Below, piece by piece: positions 1,413 through 39,723 of a stretch of 64,000 nucleotides of DNA. This stretch comes from Macrostomum lignano (taxonomy: Eukaryota), in contig NIVC01001856.1 of NCBI GenBank assembly GCA_002269645.1, forward strand, positions 124,001 to 188,000, given 5' to 3'. Position 1 is the first letter of the stretch; each line of letters begins with the position of its first letter. A program made the position numbers and the translations under genes. The notes beneath the pieces were generated by a model that was not told the DNA's origin, did not search any database, and was given only the letters and a program-made list of their open reading frames with translations.

Positions 1413-4400
1413 ATGACGAACGCGTCGGCAGTCGTTTTTGGGTGCGCCATCATCAGCTCTCTGCTGCTGCTGCTCCGACCAGCTTCCGGTGAAATTCGTA
1501 AGTCTGGGATCCCCCCCCCCCGAAAACAAAACCAGCACCTTTCTGAGCCTTCCCGACTTAACAAAAGTCGTCAAGCACTTGAGAGGCTGAATCGGGGACC
1601 TTTGAAAGAATGAAAGACTTTTGATACGGTGAGGGACTTTTGGTACGGACCTTCGACAGCTACAGTGAAGAACCTTCGGGGATTTTGTTGCGATGCAAAA
1701 AATGGGAACTTTACTTCTAAAATTTTCGTTAGGGCTCTTTGTCCCTTCAGTTCGAGGTGAATGTGCATTTTTAATATCCCATACGTTTCTACGCAACCCA
1801 GCCACCATCGGCGATGACGAAGTGAAGCTGGTGAACCTGCTGTTCGAGCACAAAGGCTACAACAGGCTGATCAGGCCAGTGGCCGATTTGAACCAAACTG
1901 TGCAGGTGGACTTTGGACTGGCGATGGTGCAGCTCATCAATGTGGTTCGTGTGGGCCTGTGTTTATGCAGATTTCATGTAGCTTTTTGTAGCTCGTGCGT
2001 GTAGGAACTGGTTGACTAGGTCTGACGTGGCTTTGACGATCATTTCATGTAGGGTTGATGCATGTAGGGTTGATGCAGGTAGGGTTGATGCAGGTAGGGT
2101 TGATGCAGGTAGGGTTGATGCAGGTAGGGTTGATGCAGGTAGGGTTGATGCAGGTAGGGTTGATGCAGGTAGGGTTGATGCAGGTAGGGTTGATGCAGGT
2201 AGGGTTGATGCATGTAGGGTTGATGCAGGTAGGGTTGATGCAGGTAGGGTTGATGCAGGTAGGATTGATGCAGGTAGGATTGATGCAGGTAGGGTTGATA
2301 CAGGTAGGGTTGATACAGGTAGGGTTGATGCAGGTAGGGTTGATACAGGTAGGGTTGATGCAGGTAGGGTTGATGCAGGTAGGGTTGATGCAGGTAGGGT
2401 TGATGCAGGTAGGGTTGATGCAGGTAGGGTTGATACAGGTAGGGTTGATGCAGGTAGGGTTGATGCAGGTAGGGTTGATGCAGGTAGGGTTGATACAGGT
2501 AGGGTTGATGCAGGTAGGGTTGATGCAGGTAGGGTTGATGCAGGTAGGGTTGATGCAGGTAGGGTTGATACAGGTAGGGTTGATGCAGGTAGGGTTGATG
2601 CAGGTAGGATTGATGCAGGTAGGGTTGATACAGGTAGGGTTGATGCAGGCACAGATACTATAAACACTAGATAGGCCACTCAGGCTAATTTTCTGGGCAA
2701 GTTTTTTATTCTACTTTCTGCTTAGTAGCAATGAAAGGAAGCAACAGTATTATTTGCTAAGTTAGACAAATCGAGCGACTGTTCTTGAGACATCGTTTGC
2801 TATAAGATCGTCATAGACAACTAACTTGTTTTGGGCAGTAAGGGTGTACATTAAGACGCGACAGTGTACAATTCCGCTTATCTTTTAAGTTTTAAAGTGG
2901 ATGAAGGGGTAGTCTGAAATGGGGTTGATATCGGTTTCGTATAAGGCAGGGTGAGAGGATCGATAATTTAGGCGCACTGGTGGTGGGATAGAAAACCAAG
3001 GACTGCACATAGCTAGCCTGGGTTAGGGGTGGGGTTTGAGAGGTTGGGGGTTAGAAATTTTGGGGCTGGCGAATCGTGTTTAAATACAAGCTTATATTGA
3101 TAAACAGGAAAAGAGTCAAGAGTTAATGAAAGTACTAGCTTTTCTATCTCGTAGAAATGTCATTTGATTCGAACCACTGCTGTGCTCCCACTTGCACGAG
3201 CTCTGTGCTATCACCACCCGAGAAAGGAAATCCGGTGCGAATGCATAGATTTCCGAAAGATGAAACTGTGGCGAAGCGCTGGCAGCAGCTATTGGAGCTG
3301 GATATTGACCTCCAAACAATATGGTCACGGGGCCTACGTGTATGCAGCTTGCACTTTACGGACGAGGCCTACAACTGCCCTAAAAAGCGCCACGAACAAG
3401 ACACCCGTCTTCGCTGGGACGCAATCCCACACCGAGAGCTGGTGCTGCCTCGGCTCGTTCGAATAGACCAACTACCCTCTGTGCAAAGAACTGATGATGA
3501 AGCTGACAACATGTACCCTCCAGTGCTGGAGCCAATTAGCGATCTGCCCGCAGCCGAGCCTGCGACCTGCCTGCTGCCAGTGCAGTGGCAGAGCAACAGT
3601 CGGCTACCAGATGCTGCACCGAGAATAGCTGTTGCTGCTGAGAGCTCTCACCTCTGCAGCCGATTCCAAGCACGAGAGGCAACGATAAAGCGACTGCAGC
3701 GGCGATCCCGAAAGCGACAAGCGATGATCAAACGGCTGCAACAGCAACTCTCGATGGCCAAGGCAAGTGCAGCGCAGTCGTGCATTCGTGGTCGACTGGG
3801 CTCTCGCAGTCGGGGGGTGCGCTGGTCGAAGGATGTCATCAACAGATCATTGCAGCTGCACCACAAGAGCCCTGCTGCTTATCGGCTGTTACGAAACCAC
3901 TGGGGATTGGCTCTGCCATCGAATACATCCTTGAAGAGGCGCATTCGCCAGTTTTTTCCATCTGTTGGGCCGTGTCGCTTGACACTTCAGTTGTTAAGCA
4001 GCCAGCTGAATGCTGGCCCTGAACAAAGACGACTGGCGACCCTGTGCTTCGACGGCATAAGCTTGTCACCCAGCGTGCGGTACGACTCGAACGCTGACAG
4101 AGTAGTCGGCTTCGACGACCGGACAGTCGGGGCACTGAGGGAGTGTACCAGCAGGCAGCAGCAGCAGGAGCAGCAGCTGAAGCCAGTGAACGAGGCAGTA
4201 GTCGCCGTGCTGCGAGGTGTTGCGCAGGACTGGAAGCAGCCGATCGCCCAATATCCCGTGAGCCACACTCTCGGACAGTCCGGGTTCAAGGCCGCCATCG
4301 CCGAGTGCTTGCGCGCCAGTCACGAGGCCGGAGTTCGGGTTGTTGCTCTAGTTGCCGACCAGGAATCAACGCAGTGGGCTCATCTGAGCAGGCAGGCAAG

Positions 4401-7400
4401 CGCGGCAGCACCGTTCTTACAGCATCCGGTTACACAGGCCCCTGTGTACGTGATGATTGACGTGCCACATTGCCTGAAGAACACCCGTAATGCCCTAATG
4501 AAAAATGACATTGAGTTTGACGGCCAGAAGCTCGCGAAATGGCATCACCTACTCAGCTTCTACGAGGTCGACTGCAGCCGATCGCTACGACTTGCAGTTC
4601 GTTTGAGCGATGCTCACTTTAACCTACAGCTGGGACAGAAGATGCGGGTCTCTCTCGCAGCGCAGATTTTTAGCCGTTCCGTCGCCAGCGGCATCAAGAC
4701 ACTCGTACACCACCAAGTGATGAAGGCTGACGCCCTGCAGACCGCCGAGTTCGCTGAGAGATTGAATGACGCGTTCGATCTGCTGAACTCATCACACTCC
4801 TTCGTCAAAGGCACAAAGCAGCCGATTCGTCGTGAGTCGTTGGTGGACCAAATGGAGCAGCTGCGAAAAGTGGAGAATTTTGTGAAAAGCTGGCGCTTCC
4901 TTCCGCACACCGGCAGAGCTGCGAAGGCGACCATGAATTTCAAGGAGGGCTGGCTGTTGTCAATTTCTGCGATTCGCTGCTTGTCCGCTCAGTTAATTCA
5001 GAACGAAGGCTTCGAGTACGTCTTCACGCGACGGTTCTCGCAGGATCATGTTGAGGTGAGCTTCGCATCAGCTGTGCATATTATGTGTTGCTCGTATTTT
5101 TCGGTTCTTCGAGATTCTTTATGATTAGCTAATTTAGCTTCTTGAAATTTCACTTTTTCAAAAACGCAATTTTACTCCTCGGAAAGGCAGTAAATGTAAA
5201 TCATACTTTCAGAGTGCACCGAGTAGTACAATTTTAGCAAAGTGAAACGCCATCCCTTTTCAGAATCTCTTCAGCATCCTTAGAGGGCGCAACGGGTTCA
5301 ATGAAAAACCCGAACTGTCAGCTTTCATTGGCGCCCTGAGATCAGTAGCGGCTGGTGGGCTCTCTAAGCCGGATTCATCGGCTAGGAACTGTGAGGATGA
5401 CGGCTGCTCAGCTGCGATCTCAGCTTCCGGCGCATCAGCTTGCGCATCAGTAGGACGAGACGACAGCACTGCTGCAACCAGTGACTGGACACCGCCGAGT
5501 GAAGCCTCTGGCAGCAATTCAAACGAAGCAGCCATCCCGCTGCTGCACGAACCGATGGAAGGCCTGGCTACTGTCCAAGACGATGCAGTACTGAACGAGG
5601 CCACTGAATACGTAGCTGGTTACGTGCTGAAAAAGAGTGGCGTATTGGACTGCAGCAACTGCAGGGCGGAGCTGACAGTGTCAGATCCGTCTGGCTGTCA
5701 CATGCAGCACAAGCGTCTGCCCCACGCAGTCATCGGCCTCACGCATCCTTCACCTGCGGCTTTGGGCGAGTTCTGCAAGATGGAGGCTGCCTTCGTTGCG
5801 CAATCGCACAGTTTTATTGTGCAGCCGCAGGTAGCTAAACGATTGGCTGCTGTGTTCACAGCTGCTGCAGCAGTTGCACTGCCGGCTTGCAGCTCACACG
5901 CTGCACATGTGCAGCGTCAGGTATGCAGCACGTTTGCACAGCTGCGACTGCATCATTGGTGCCGCTGCGAGATGAGAAGCCTGCGAGCAGCGGCGAGCAG
6001 GAGCAGCACGCTGCGAAAGTTTCACAAACTGCGATGAGCTGATTAATTGATGAGAAATCATTCTATCTAGATAAACGAATATGGAGTATATAATAGCTTG
6101 TATTTGCTAAGTATAGTTAACAGCAATAATATGGCCGTCAATGCAATCTAAAGCATTCACACTATTGCTTTTTGTCGTAGAAAGTATAGTTAAAAGTTTA
6201 TTTTTGCTAATAATATCATAATACAATTGCTGCATTGTATTCATCTTGGTTTTTAATTTTTTAAATATAAAAAACGCTAAAATGTTTTATCACTACTAAG
6301 CAGAAAGTAGAATAAACTGTCGTGTTGTGAAAATTAGCCTGAGTGGCCTATCTAGTGTATATAGTATCTGTGGATGCAGGTAGGGTTGATGCAGGTAGGG
6401 TTGATGCAGGTAGGGTTGATACAGGTAGGGTTGATGCATGTAGGGTTGATGCAGGTAGGGTTGATACAGGTAGGGTTGATGCAGGTAGGGTTGATGCAGG
6501 TAGGGTTGATGCAGGTAGGGTTGATGCATGTAGGGTTGATGCAGGTAGGGTTGATGCAGGTAGGGTTGATGCAGGTAGGGTTGATGCAGGTAGGGTTGAT
6601 GCAGGTAGGGTTGATGCAGGTAGGGTTGATGCAGGTAGGATTGATGAAGAAAAGATTGGAGTAGGTTTTTGTTTTGAAGTAGGTCTGATGTGAAATGGAT
6701 TCAAATTAGATGCTTTTTAAATGAAGCAATGATTTGGTTTTGGTGCTCGAGCGTAGGTCTAATTTAAGTTAGCAAATTTCGATTTCTTCTCGTCGCCTCG
6801 CCATAACTCTTAGCTACTCTTAGCTACACTTTTTACAATTGCAGGAAGAGAAGGCCCAGATTCTGAAGAGTAACGTCTGGCTTAGAATGGTAAGGCATTG
6901 GGGGGCCGGGTGGCTGTAGCCCAGTGGTCCAGCGAGGCGCTCTGATGTGCCAGCGGCCCAGGCTCGATTCCAGGCTCGGCAGTCGCATTATTTGGGGCTG
7001 AATTGGAATCTCGGCTTGGCTCTGCTTGTGCAGTTAACTGTAATGCAGGCCAACCCCCAAGGCACAGTGATGCCTAACGATAAATGAAGTTTGGGCCGCT
7101 GTACACTCCTGTGTGAGTGTGTGCCTGTGCGTATGACTGCGTACGTATCCGCGCGCTTGTGTGCCTGCTCAGGGGAGTCGGCGGAATGGGCAGCAATGCC
7201 TCTCGCCGGTTGTGTGACAATTTCGCTTAAAGTGCTCACAGCCCCTGCCCCTAACTAAACTAACTAATGGTAAGACATTCAAGTCCATAACCAACTAACT
7301 TTCGATTTTGGTGAGAACATTTTTTGCTAAACTGACTGGCACGAGCCATCCTTAAAGTCGATTTGCAAAAACTGAAAGCATTCCCAGTATTTATAATTCA

Positions 7401-34200: not shown

Positions 34201-35300
34201 GATCAGCACACTTTTCTTCAGAATCTTGATGGCGAACAAATTGCTTGACGCCTTCTCCCGGCACAGCACCACCTTGCCGAAGGTGCCCATGCCCAGCACC
34301 TTCAGCATCTCGAAGTCCGACAGGCTAACCTTGTTCCTGGGTCTGCGCGAAATTCAACGGAAAGTGTAATGTAAAATTCAATGCAATTATAGAATCTCTA
34401 TAAACCTTTTGCCATAAAATTTTATCATAAAATTAATGCAACTAAAAATTCTCACAAGTTCATATCTAACAATGCCTTTATTAATAACTTGCTGACTCCC
34501 TCACAGCAAACTCCCTCACTGCAAGCTCCCTCACTGCATCTAGCTGACTCCCTCACTGCAAACTCCCTCACTGGCTATCTAGCAGCCCCAATCTACACGG
34601 GAACTCACAGTTCTGGCGGCTCCACAGCATCTGACGCGGTGCTAACAGTGGCCGGACACTCTCCAGACGACTTGTGCATATTAGTGACATTAACAATTGC
34701 GTTCACCCAGGCCTCGCGCTCGGCGTTAGTCTCAACGTAAAACATTCGATCAACAATATTGGTGCCCTGCAGGCCTCGAAGCAGAAATGTGAATGGCTTT
34801 GGCGTATCCATGAACAGAGCTTTGGAATTTTTAACAGTGAAATTGTTCAGCGGCTGTAGGTACTCTTTCTGAGTCTTTGGCTTCACTTTATAGCCAAAGA
34901 ATGTGCCATCCTGGTACAGTATGAAGTAGCGACGCCGCCAGTTTTTAATGTGCTCGCCGCGTTTCATGAGGTAGCCTTCCTTAATTAGCGACTTGGAGAT
35001 TGGAATGCGACTAGGCAGCGGCTCGTGCGGCATGCTGCAGGCCTGGCTAGGGGCTTCGTGAAACAGCTGCATGTGCTGGTTCATGTAGTTCAGGCTGGGC
35101 ACTTCGTTTGGCGGCGGCCTCTGACCGCCGAAGTACTGCGACACCAATGTCGACACCGAGTCCATTGGAGAGCAGTTCGCCTGCTCACCGCCGGGAGGAA
35201 GGTGCAGCTGCTGCTGGGCAGCTGACGGCTGCGGCGATTCGCCACAGTCAGGATTTTCAATTTCCATATCCATATCGCCGTCTTCGTTGCGCTGTTCCAT
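31282..35300 (-). CDS. AKT: RAC/Akt (PKB) Ser/Thr kinase, ~586 aa from ATG 35300; exons 35300-34609, 34342-34198, 32879-32483, 31808-31282
   Basis: PH domain [22 protein letters not shown]; LGMGTFGKV; AIKILKK; YRDLKLEN; DFGLCKE; [14 protein letters not shown] (T308 site); [14 protein letters not shown]; turn motif LTPP; hydrophobic motif FEKFSFY. All GT-AG and in frame; true start uncertain. Confidence 0.96.
31985..32390. repeat. 32/33-bp degenerate minisatellite, Akt intron 3
   Basis: GCAATGATCTGGGATGAGATC(C/T)CATGG(G)AAGAT tandem units. Confidence 0.93.
32965..33470. repeat. 32-bp minisatellite, Akt intron 2
   Basis: ATGAGCTACAGATAGAACTCATGTACCTCAGT tandem. Confidence 0.96.
33950..34125. 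repeat. 16-bp minisatellite, Akt intron 2
   Basis: AAGTTCAGAATCCCTG tandem. Confidence 0.95.
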
Positions 35301-36789
35301 GCTGGAAGTTACACGGCGCTTTAGTCGATTAGTAGAAGGGCTAAGCCCCAAGGCAGACACAGTGTGTGTACATCAGGGCCCGCTGTACATCTTGCGTGAG
35401 CATTCCTCAGGAAAAAACTCACAACGCTTAAGTATCAATTTTCATACAACCTGAAGCTGCATTACAAGTTTACCCAACTCTACTACAGCCGAAGTACTTT
35501 GCTCTGCTACAGGCATAGCTTTGATGTATTGTATTTTCTAATCTATCTAATCTATCTAATTTTAAACGCTTAAGAAAAACATTTCAAATAGTAACTCAGA
35601 GCAACTGTCACCTTAGCGCGTGCTTATAAAATATACTAATATTACCCAATATAGAAGCCTAGAAATGGTATAACTCACTGTCAGGCTTGAATATTTAATT
35701 TCGAGCAAAGACTACTCGGATTTGTTGACTGCCAGTCATCACGCCCCTTTGCCTGATAAAAAGCTTCCCCCTCAAGCCCTGACCTCTTCTTAGCTTTCTT
35801 ATCAAATCGGTGCAGCGCACCAATGCACAGCTAGTGCAAGCCTATGAAGGCATCGCACTCGCTGCAATAACAATCCTAACTTTACAAGCTAAGGACATTG
35901 TACCCTATGAAAGGCAGCGAAAAAAGGTAAACACAAACACAAAAGTTTGCTCTAGTTTTCCCGCAGACTGACTCGGCATTAGCCGCTAAAAAGGAAGTCG
36001 GACGGCGAGCTGACACAGCGATACAGTGTAGAGTTATCGAAGCCCTAGGCAGCATCCCCCCTAGCTTGCTGGCTAAAGAAGAGGAAATGAAAAGGAGGCA
36101 AGCAGCAGAGGCCAGTGACGCAAATAGAAACCTTTTTGAATGAAACCCTAACAAGGAAGCCGGGCCGGGAGCAGCGGAGTAGCAAAACGCGAGCTAGAGA
36201 GAAAAAGAAGGCAGAGCGGCGGATTCAAGTAGCACAGATTGAAGGAAGACAGATATATTAATAACGGTTTGCCTATGCAATACAGCCTACAACAGTAATA
36301 GCAATTATAAGGTAAAAACTAATGACAGGGAAGAATGTACTGATGGAGGGCCGCGGAAAATCCTAATGTTCATAATTAATGCAAAGCGTTTAGATTAATA
36401 TTTTTAAGCCCTAAGTCTCGCTCGCAGTTTAATGAATACAGAAACTGCATATGCAGATAGGGGTTTCTGAGTTCACAGCGAAGTGTAAACATAAGTGATT
36501 ACCCAAGCACTACTGACTGACTGGGTTAAAGCACGAAAACACCTAGGCTAAGAGATTGCAAACTAAGAAAGGTCCCGCACGTGACAGCTTGACTGAGCGC
36601 ATAAGCAGAAACTGCTATGCTTTGACCTTCAAAGCACATCGTTACATAATGAAGTCGTAACTGAAGCCTCAATCGATTTTCATGATTTAGCAGGCCACAG
36701 GTAACAAATAGCAGGTAAAGGCACCAAAGTAACAATATACTGACGCATTAACAAAACGGATTTTTTTCACACAAACACAACTAAAACTT

Positions 36790-37310
36790 ACTGCCTGAAT
36801 TCCGCACAAACACGAACTAAAACTGCCTCAATTCCGCACAAACACGAACTAAAACTGCCTCAATTCCGCACAAATACGAACTAAAACTGCCTCAATTCCG
36901 CACAAACACGAACTAAAACTGCCTCAATTCCGCACAAACACGAACTAAACCTGCCTCAATTCCGCACAAACACGAACTAAACCTGCCTCAATTCCGCACA
37001 AACACGAACTAAAGCTGCCTCAATTCCGCACAAACACGAACTAAAGCTGCCTCAATTCCGCACAAACACGAACTAAAACTGCCTCAATTCCGCACAAACA
37101 CGAACTAAACCTGCCTCAATTCCGCACAAACACGAACTAAACCTGCCTCAATTCCGCACAAACACGAACTAAAACTGCCTCAATTCCGCACAAACACGAA
37201 CTAAACCTGCCTCAATTCCGCACAAACACGAACTAAAACTGACTGAATTCCGCACACACACACGAACTAAACCTGCCTCAATTCCACACAAACACGAACT
37301 AAAACTGCCT
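36790..37310. repeat. 32-bp minisatellite upstream of Akt
   Basis: CACAAACACGAACTAAAACTGCCTCAATTCCG tandem. Confidence 0.96.
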
Positions 37311-39671
37311 AGATTCTGCCCAGTTCGCACACAATATCAGTCTATAAATTCTAGTAAAAAATTTTACGTCAATAAGGACATTGTCACAACTCACATACTG
37401 ACTATTGCAGGAAAGAGACGCGTCAGACAAAATTAGATGTAGCTATACTTGATGAATACACAGACAGACACGATATAATCCAAATCCAGCGGGGTGAATT
37501 CCGCGGGATTAAGCACGGGGAACACACATATATAGGCATATACGGGAGATAGAAACCGTATAAAACGGCACAAGGGAGGGGGGATTGACAGTTCTAAGCA
37601 TGGCTTTATGCAGAAATCCCAACAGCCAATGAGAATGAAAGGACACTTTGACATTAAATTCAAACTACTAGACTGGCTGATGTTTGAGCAGGCTGGGTGA
37701 GACAGAGTTCAGCCAGATGGATTTAGATGAGGAGAAAGCGAAAAAGAAAAGTAAAACTCTTCTCGTGCCCGCGCGCTGCAGCCGGGGTCAGAGAAATCCC
37801 CGAACAGCGCGGCGCCGCACTTTCTTGCCTCCTCCCCGAAAGAACAAGCTCGTTGGCCAATGAGCGATCAGGTGATTAGCTGTGATTAGCAGAATCTGAA
37901 TTCTGAGCATTCCGAGACTTGACTAGCCTCCTGTTTGCGTGCGAGTTGAGCACAACGAATGCAAAACCATCCGACCCTTCTCCCCAGAAGGAACAAGCTT
38001 AGCCGGCCTAAGTTGATTTACACTAGGCTCAGTGGAGATGAAGCCAGCTGAGCTCACTTCAGTAACAGAGGCTGAGCATTGTAATCAAAGCCGAAATAAT
38101 TTTGCAGATTTCAATAAGAGCAAGCTCTAATGATTCTGCAATGCAGAAACAGAAGAACCATGGCATACATGGGGGCACTCCATCGAATTGAGATAAATTT
38201 ACCTTTCATATTATTTTATATTTGATAATGGATTAAACCATACTTTAAACTTTGGCATCCTGAATTCCTACCCCAGATGCCTAATTGAAACTCTGTTTTT
38301 CCAAGCTGTGAACAGAGTCCACACACTCTGCAACTTTCATGGGTCAGAGAGGCTTAGGTAGAGAAGTGTGAAAAGTAGATATTCCAGCCATTTTCAATTG
38401 GGCATCCTGAATTAAGACCTAGGATGCCAAATAGAACTACAATTCTAATATCAAAAAACATAACAGATAAAAAACAATACTAATACTCACTACAATCTAA
38501 TTTTTCTTTGAAAGAAAGAGCAAAAAGCTCATCTAAATCATAAAAATATTGTCAACCTAATTTGATATCAAATGCCCCAAGCCTTGGCTTTAAGTTAAGA
38601 CTCCTCTGTTTGCTTTTTTTCAATAATCCAATGTGATAAGAAAACTGATGAATAAAGGGCAAAATATGAGTATATTATATATTTTTGCCTTTAACATCCC
38701 TTCTTAAATTCATTTAAATTATATTAATCAAGTATACTTTTACTTTTTATATATAACTGATAATATTCTTAGAGTAAAATCATACAGGGTATAAATTAAA
38801 TAGAAAGCCAAAAAGAGACAGAGCAGCCAGTTTCTTTATTGAGTTTAATAACTATTTACTATTTCTTCTTTAACTAATTAAATTTACTTTGAACCTTTTG
38901 GCAGTCTTTAAAATAGACTCATTTCCTTAGATTGAGAAAAGTCCAAGCATTAATAGAATTAGTAGCCATTTAGAAAAAGAAATATCCTAGCCTATTAATC
39001 TAAAGAAATTGTTTCAAGCAATACAAACCTCTTAGAACTATGACACTCTGATCTTAGGAATGCCCAAAGAGAAAGAAATCCCTTATAAGATAAACAGTGC
39101 TATACAATATAACTACTTAGGCTAGACTCATGCGCTAGGGGCCTACTCAATAGATAATCCATATGTTACCAATAAACAATGCATGCACTACCAGTAATGT
39201 ATATACATTGTGCATATTGTGATGGTGTCAAATTCTGTTTGTCCAATACTTTATGGATTATTTAAACTTAACATATAATAGATATGTGATTTTTCAATAT
39301 AATCTTAATTAATTAACCTGATCTATTCTAATCTAATCTAATCAATACTTGAGTTTGTTTTAATTGTATCTCAAAAGTGAACTATTTTGAAGCATAATTA
39401 TTGTCTCTTTTTACCCTCTACTCTGCTCTCTATGCAGGCACTAGCATTGTCTTGTGACCAATCATATGCTACAGTCTCTATTGCAAAAAACTCAATCTAT
39501 TACATGCTAGACTAAAGGCCCTTCATTATATTACACATTTAACAACTACAGAAGCCTGTCCCTTTCAACTGTAAATTGACTGTCAATTAAATAAAAATAA
39601 AAATATTCTTATATATTCTTAGCAAAAGCATACTTTATGACTATACTACTTTTCACCTTGTCACATTTTAA

Positions 39672-39723
39672 TGGAGGTCCCACCAAGACTCAAACTTGGG
39701 TTGCAGGATTCAAAGTCCTAAGT
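39672..39723 (-). pseudogene. 3' half of tRNA-Gln(UUG) with encoded CCA, hypermutated at CpG sites
   Basis: Minus strand ACTTAGGACTTTGAATCCTGCAACCCAAGTTTGAGTCTTGGTGGGACCT-CCA: anticodon arm AGGA-CTTTGAA-TCCT, T arm, acceptor 3' strand; T-loop TTC changed to TTT; 5' half absent. Confidence 0.8.

Follow-up and report, generated by a model that had tools for sequence, protein, structure and literature searches.

A 52-nt segment of the Macrostomum lignano genome reads, on its minus strand, as the CCA-tailed 3' part of a glutamine tRNA, and it raises the question of how so long a tRNA copy came to lie where an LTR retrotransposon would carry its primer-binding site (PBS), and why it has lost every CpG. 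The segment lies in a 64,000-nt stretch of this 764-Mb genome (contig NIVC01001856.1, 124001-188000), which we call the window and whose own numbering is used below. We consider it likely, with a probability of about 0.7, that the segment is part of the 5' remnant of a dead LTR retrotransposon whose 52-nt tRNA-Gln(CUG) PBS arose by overrun of m1A58, and that its CpGs were then lost through methylation in the chromosome.

Identity of the tRNA copy

The 52-mer that the first-pass annotation had quoted from the minus strand lies at 39672-39723, and both the CCA (TGG on the plus strand) and the CA-ttttaa-TGG geometry that it described are present. The closest host genes are a tRNA-Gln(CUG) class with six loci, which is identical to this region at 43 of 49 bases; the chance expectation for a match of such quality within the window is 4e-15. 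Each of the six differences is a C>T or G>A change. Four of them fall in CpGs (G45>A, G51>A, C56>T and C63>T), one in a CpA (C27>T) and one in a CpT at the wobble base of the anticodon (C34>T), where positions follow standard tRNA numbering and G51, C63 and C56 correspond to gene indices 50, 62 and 55. The report that all four CpGs had been altered, by two G>A and two C>T changes, agrees with this comparison to the closest host gene, as do the pairing of the T-stem changes (G51>A with C63>T) and the loss of the invariant TTC through C56>T. The host Gln(CUG) genes do not already carry the altered A or T bases. As had also been stated, the changes are concentrated at CpG, affecting 4 of 8 CpG bases versus 2 of 41 others (Fisher p 0.004); the latter two are among the 21 other C/G bases, and 0 of 20 A/T bases has changed.

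Two parts of the earlier description do not stand. It held that nothing else had changed, which overlooks the sixth difference, C34>T in the anticodon, and it named the UUG isoacceptor, whereas the closest host gene, separated by six deamination-type differences only, is Gln(CUG). Because this class is the closest and deamination-type changes suffice, the UUG anticodon is most likely a mutated one (C34>T). We rejected tRNA-Gln(UUG) as the source since the copy differs from the two UUG classes of the host at 8 and 9 bases, 3 and 4 of these differences not being of the deamination type; across the other four host Gln classes there are 7-9 differences each, of which 1-4 are not C>T or G>A. Judged by this comparison of host genes, the source tRNA is Gln(CUG), not UUG. 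As a separate observation, one tRNA-Gln(UUG) gene class with four loci (L076, L084, L085, L090) has a D-loop longer by one base and lacks a T-run immediately after the gene.

CCA is encoded in none of the 20 host tRNA-Gln genes. The proposal that the segment is a cDNA of mature tRNA holds for its first 18 nt, an ordinary PBS starting from CCA; for the 34-nt extension it does not carry over, as either RNA or a tRNA gene could have been the template. The CCA is uninformative on the origin of the extension because any PBS brings CCA. A pattern search of the genome returned 24 places, namely the 20 tRNA-Gln genes, two unrelated places, the window and the window's duplicate. No tRNA gene was detected at the 52-mer by ARAGORN (0 genes), and the Rfam tRNA score of 24.2 bits lies below the 29-bit cut-off. 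The 5' third of the tRNA is absent from the locus (20 differences within positions 1-23), so that with C56 altered as well there is no full cloverleaf with D-arm and intact T-loop. We rejected a full-length tRNA pseudogene, since the Rfam alignment at 39675-39743 takes two G from the adjoining repeat and positions 1-23 mismatch. In four sequencing runs, one of which may be the source of the assembled DNA, no allele keeping any CpG in the tRNA copy was found.

The copy lies behind an LTR

The placement proposed in the first-pass annotation, that of an extended PBS, is borne out: a 448-bp LTR ends 6 nt before the TGG (Table 1), and the tRNA copy follows directly behind it in PBS register.

Table 1. 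Features of the locus in window coordinates
Feature	Position	Strand	Basis
5' LTR of a relic LTR retrotransposon, 448 bp, TGTGA...TCACA, without CpG	39218..39665	+	family identity, ends, target duplications
LTR-PBS spacer, 6 nt	39666..39671	+	5-nt version in the same-LTR elements L034 and L036
Canonical 18-nt PBS, complement of tRNA-Gln 76-59; one CpG change at 39685	39672..39689	+	13-mer count, host gene match
34-nt over-extension, complement of tRNA-Gln(CUG) 58 to 24; changes at 39692, 39697, 39702 (CpG), 39713 (anticodon C34) and 39720 (CpA)	39690..39723	+	host gene comparison
Short leader remnant, like the L071/L049 leader directly and the L036 leader inverted	39724..39741	+	alignment, post hoc
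Unrelated repeat fragment (family A, long terminal inverted repeats) that cuts off the LTR element	39742..40101	+	family loci
CpG-depleted, AT-rich domain of several repeat relics, containing the tRNA copy	38185..44409		10 CpG in 6225 bp, GC 0.30
Segment missing from C1497, the third copy of the region	39152..39763		comparison of copies

The window LTR is 71-82% identical to 24 other genome matches, among 26 listed, and its TG...CA ends are common to the family copies. Exact target duplications of 4 bp, the usual length in animal Gypsy elements, flank the family at six sites (L020, L024/25, L037, L038, L039, L042); L040 has one of 5 bp, L021 an imperfect one of 5 bp, and the rest have no clear duplication. 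The target duplication is known from the LTR family, the window copy having lost its 3' end. Two elements with the same LTR, L034 and L036, continue with TTTAA and then the same tRNA-Gln PBS. The first 13 nt of this PBS occur 137 times in the genome versus 4 times for a control, and among 30 of these hits that were examined, 28 are preceded by an LTR-like CA end. Five Gln-PBS elements with a pol frame were scanned, and all five have the order RT-RNaseH-integrase.

The window holds a single copy of the LTR, as a truncated relic in which no second LTR is found. Its nearest LTR relatives are all solo LTRs, and among the matches listed there was no sibling of the window LTR subfamily with an internal region. 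When the window LTR and the L020 LTR were used to look for full-length siblings, solo LTRs and two non-coding elements came up. L034's element is seen at L159 (C1233:69875-72114), where it measures 2.2 kb, has LTRs 99.3% alike and lacks a long frame; no ORF of at least 250 aa is present in the examined parts of the same-LTR elements L159 and L164. By these sequence features the window element is likely a non-autonomous Ty3/Gypsy element, a membership that rests on the LTR, the duplication length, the PBS and the shared leader, the window copy itself having no coding sequence. With the Gln-primed Ty3/Gypsy families of the same genome (L163, L166-L169) it shares the LTR-spacer-TGG geometry and the tRNA, and those families have 4-bp duplications and the RT-RNaseH-integrase order; it differs from them in its contiguous tRNA match, 52 nt versus 12-20 nt. 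Within the leader remnant, 39726-39737 matches the L036 leader as reverse complement at 11 of 12 positions with one gap, possibly a micro-inversion at the junction.

Length and uniqueness of the extension

Complementarity to the tRNA runs for 52 nt, 34 nt past the canonical 18, and does not stop at position 59, the canonical end. Searching for the part past the canonical PBS with at most three mismatches gave 22 hits, of which the window and its duplicate are the only clean extensions and the other 20 are tRNA genes; decayed copies with more than three mismatches or with indels escape this search. No other clean extended PBS copy appeared in the pattern searches of the assembly, including the sets of 22 and 31 hits, and within this assembly the clean 34-nt extension goes back to one event only. 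When 32 distinct leaders were compared, the 31 other than the window's had contiguous tRNA matches of 12-20 nt, those of the same-LTR elements L034 and L036 measuring 12-15 nt.

Related leaders carry traces of similarity over the same stretch. PBS-anchored alignment, applied to 16 leaders besides L198 and the window and giving uncorrected p values, found decayed in-register similarity past nt 18 in L034/L036/L198 (p 0.0045-0.006), in L046/L050 (p 0.006-0.0085) and in L049/L053/L071 (p 0.0015-0.01). The signal was weak in L044/L057 (p 0.024-0.028), and extension similarity was absent from L043, L062, L055, L051, L048, L064 and L056 in this alignment. An unanchored test gave p 0.01-0.045 for the first two leader groups and p 0.34-0.87 for the L071 group, and a duplex-energy test gave p <0.05 in one of ten leaders (L036). 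We regard the apparent tRNA-likeness of three related leader types as suggestive, not settled.

In another PBS family, 3 of 12 copies have T at nt 18, and the closest neighbour of each of the three has C there; a second column, nt 23, is equally variable. At the place of PBS nt 18, ten host tRNA-Gln genes have C and ten have T. The nt 18 pattern fits copying of the PBS from the primer in this genome, for which it is mild support. A large Gln-primed Gypsy family (L043, L045, L054, L067 and relatives) has the 3' half of its PBS tandemly repeated, with a unit of about 47 nt, within the first 150 nt behind the LTR, and its C/T variation at PBS nt 18 mirrors two host isodecoder classes.

CpG loss and its cause

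The CpG observed/expected ratio (o/e) is 0.07 over the domain that contains the tRNA copy; it is 0.79-0.89 in the flanks and 0.69-1.11 at 30 PBS loci, and the kinase gene stretch next to the domain shows no depletion (0.79). In the window LTR it is 0.00. All 15 CpGs of the nearest relative, L020, are lost there, 14 of them as TG, CA or TA, and none has been gained; the two LTRs diverge by 18%, and 20 of the 375 sites compared are transversions. The same direction of change, at fewer sites, is seen in fragments of repeat families A, C and D. The first-pass annotation had taken the tRNA copy as a sign of fast mutation; no rate follows from six undated changes, and CpG loss of this kind spans 6.2 kb and several unrelated repeats. 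Over 13 insertion sites (duplicates merged), the LTR is depleted at four of the five with CpG-poor flanks and at none of the eight with normal flanks, although the rank correlation of LTR and flank o/e is not significant when taken by itself (rho 0.47, p 0.10). The exception among the CpG-poor flanks is L038 (C352), a young insertion with its CpGs intact in a CpG-poor flank, a natural test of ongoing decay. In L038 the L159 site is seen in another copy, occupied by a solo LTR.

CpG decay by deamination of 5-methylcytosine is familiar from mosaic-methylated invertebrate genomes. The genome contains DNMT1-, DNMT2- and DNMT3-like exons, three copies of each, and the C>T change at this locus is led by CpG and strand-symmetric. 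The CpG loss is regional and is likely a post-insertion decay of the kind expected of ordinary 5-methylcytosine deamination, and the surrounding 6 kb or so were probably methylated in the germ line. Reviews describe, in the passages available, low 5mC and retained DNMT1 and DNMT3 in M. lignano and call the patterns of free-living flatworms unknown (PMC11292947, PMC9246332, PMC10658182). The locus resembles mosaic-methylated invertebrate genomes, as outlined in parts of two of these reviews (PMC11292947, PMC9246332), in its strand-symmetric loss of CpG to TpG and CpA and in its kilobase domains; it differs in that the domain is a patch of repeat relics and the neighbouring kinase gene stretch is spared.

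We also considered a special deamination, through cDNA editing or a RIP-like mechanism, in place of 5-methylcytosine. The non-CpG changes lean that way: C>T and G>A are elevated in the LTR (17/111 versus 9/264 for T>C and A>G), and repeat family C (40407-40816) has an excess of CpA>TpA, with 26/63 changed versus 10/56 at CpT plus CpC (p 0.009). Such a mechanism seems improbable to us all the same, since both strands and unrelated repeats are affected over 6 kb, CpG is hit most strongly (16/30 CpG versus 8/44 CpA cytosines changed in the LTR), the CpA excess is missing from the LTR (p 0.60), and relatives of DNMT1 and DNMT3 exist in the genome.

Origin of the long PBS

For the extension itself we infer a four-step origin. 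While it copied the tRNA that remained joined to the minus strand, reverse transcriptase would have passed A58 and continued to about position 24 in the D-stem, either on an under-modified primer or by read-through. The long 3' end would have completed plus-strand transfer by re-annealing on a leader already partly tRNA-like over the same stretch, with the outcome that this leader was replaced by a fresh tRNA copy. The copy would then have integrated and been cut 18 nt further on by a DNA-transposon-like repeat, with loss of the inside and the 3' LTR, and germ-line methylation of the 6-kb patch would have led to CpG loss on both strands. Plus-strand copying fits because the segment is antisense to the tRNA and starts at CCA, 6 nt past the LTR, as in 28 of 30 PBS hits. 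The tRNA copy also looks younger than the split of the LTRs, given its 43/49 match and its 20 unchanged A/T bases versus an LTR 18% off L020.

According to passages of two papers, plus-strand synthesis normally halts before m1A58, giving 18 nt (PMC13191261, PMC11251516). One of them reports, in the sections available, that HIV-1 reverse transcriptase fully copies unmodified tRNA, with minor products ending at 55, 54 and 37, which speaks for read-through (PMC13191261). Several observations count against it. The extension goes back to one event, and there is no misincorporation at A58 in the tRNA copy. In HIV-1 the product to position 37 is reported as non-productive for transfer (PMC13191261). 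The PBS of Ty1 and Ty3, as described in excerpts of PMC5371799, is not inherited from the tRNA, which counts against copying from the primer.

An alternative is that the 52-nt PBS was inherited as the normal state of a nearly extinct subfamily, in which read-through products always matched, the leader was refreshed at each cycle, and the related families have since decayed. Three leader types with in-register similarity ending near the same tRNA position would fit this, one of which (L071/L163) belongs to an element whose LTRs are identical and which has open frames, and the nearest LTR relatives, being solo LTRs, have no PBS to compare. We nevertheless think it unlikely, as neither the 22 nor the 31 hits contain a further clean copy and L034 and L036, with the same LTR, have a contiguous PBS of 12-15 nt. 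We are just as doubtful of an animal Gypsy lineage whose replication relies on a primer site some 52 nt long, its reverse transcriptase routinely passing m1A58 to the D-stem and its leader acting as a very long primer over-extension sequence that is rewritten from the tRNA, with the relic as the fresh state from which the living families have drifted. Lower still we place a lengthening of an ordinary PBS in the chromosome, where a 15-nt stretch identical to a tRNA gene would have primed repair synthesis or gene conversion and 34 bases been copied. Repair synthesis from a tRNA gene would yield identical letters and would account for the error-free copy of A58, and the place is a rearranged one, with another repeat cutting the leader 18 nt on. 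This route is made rather improbable by the end of the copy, which falls where the decayed extensions of related leaders end, and by the 5' part of the tRNA gene, which does not follow; 15 nt is also short for ectopic repair.

A tRNA retropseudogene of LINE origin, 5'-truncated and lying beside a solo LTR by chance, would explain the TTAAAA that follows CCA on the minus strand, which we take to resemble a LINE endonuclease site, and APE-type LINEs are present in the genome (L165). That the same LTR is followed by TTTAA and the same PBS in L034 and L036 comes close to refuting it, and no poly(A) follows the CCA, so that we give this reading hardly any weight. Overrun of m1A58 during plus-strand synthesis is the account that we prefer.

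Comparison with known systems

Muthuswami 2002 is said to be the original paper on the primer over-extension sequence (POS). On present sequence evidence we interpret the tRNA copy as a fossil variant of a known process, which would act like an over-long POS. The POS of lentiviruses and spumaviruses, as presented in parts of PMC13191261, is likewise a tRNA complement directly downstream of an 18-nt PBS that would permit over-extended plus-strand transfer; read-through there reaches about position 55, a few nt, whereas the window extension is 34 nt long and spans the T-arm and the anticodon arm as far as position 24. The same passages state that the short lentiviral POS rescues shorter over-extended products (PMC13191261). 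The window extension is one fossil copy in a retrotransposon, POS-like by its letters, and its family appears to show decayed similarity in three leader types. Far overruns of m1A58 in HIV-1 have been described as dead ends, and a copy that integrated after extending to position 24 would demonstrate that products of this kind are able to complete transposition, provided that the leader was already tRNA-like; this suggests an origin for extended primer-template pairing sites. As this is one dead copy, any function of the long PBS is putative.

Ty1 and Ty3, by the account in sections of PMC5371799, also have element RNA complementary to the T-arm and D-arm beyond the acceptor stem, in bipartite or extended primer pairing; theirs are short separate boxes, whereas the window has a collinear tRNA copy. 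Helenus/TRIMp3 (Kojima 2024, PMC10886601, from the portions available) resembles the window element as a non-autonomous LTR element with a tRNA-derived piece and, in animals, 4-bp duplications, but its tRNA-like part lies within the LTR and is not PBS-complementary, while the tRNA copy of the window is the PBS and lies outside the LTR. We rejected membership in Helenus/TRIMp3, as the sole Rfam tRNA match in 35000-45000 falls outside the LTR. In the literature outside subscription journals and Repbase entries, none of the papers listed was seen to describe an LTR retrotransposon with a collinear PBS of 50 nt, and the main text of PMC12801592 contains neither 'PBS' nor 'tRNA'.

Because tRNA genes hardly change, the tRNA copy can serve as a small neutral reference for local mutation, with 4 of 4 CpG sites, 2 of 21 other C/G and 0 of 20 A/T bases changed. 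A CpG-free patch of 6 kb with such sharp limits suggests that the germ line is methylated domain by domain, which would bear on free-living flatworms, a group whose patterns are called unknown in passages of a 2022 review (PMC9246332).

The surrounding locus and its copies

The LTR element is interrupted 18 nt past the tRNA copy by the family A repeat, whose match starts at 39742 in 7 of 11 family loci and at 39711-39752 in the others; inverted arms are present in L105-L107. The region occurs three times in the assembly, as the window, C2889 and C1497. Since C2889 is 99.8% identical to the window, it is not independent evidence. C1497 lacks about 612 bp that include the LTR, the PBS and the tip of family A. 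Its form is best explained as a deletion because the missing segment also takes the tip of family A, and for the same reason we rejected C1497 as the empty site before insertion. Joined and intact forms are both found in sequencing runs X1 and X15, which come from two studies. None of the splice joints listed, from contigs of runs presumed to be RNA, falls in 37400-45300, and none of the datasets listed as containing the region is on record as RNA.

The window is gene-dense and animal-like: of the 19 frames scanned, 9 matched Pfam families, among them THAP transposase, ligand-gated channel and PH-kinase. A CpG-rich, promoter-like stretch with a CCAAT box lies at 37700-38000, between the PH-kinase gene on the minus strand and the CpG-poor domain, and the border of this domain at about 38190 is sharp. 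Within the domain, 42462-42621 is a MITE-like hairpin repeat of very high depth in all four runs examined; its Rfam match to mir-3149 is weak (30.8 bits versus a cut-off of 100). Elsewhere in the window, a 661-aa open frame at 3139-5124 has THAP and TNP-like domains, as in a P-element-like transposase, and is flanked by inverted repeats at 2644-2736 and 6285-6378. Related minisatellite arrays with units of 41-46 bp occupy four separate places between 45405 and 59051.
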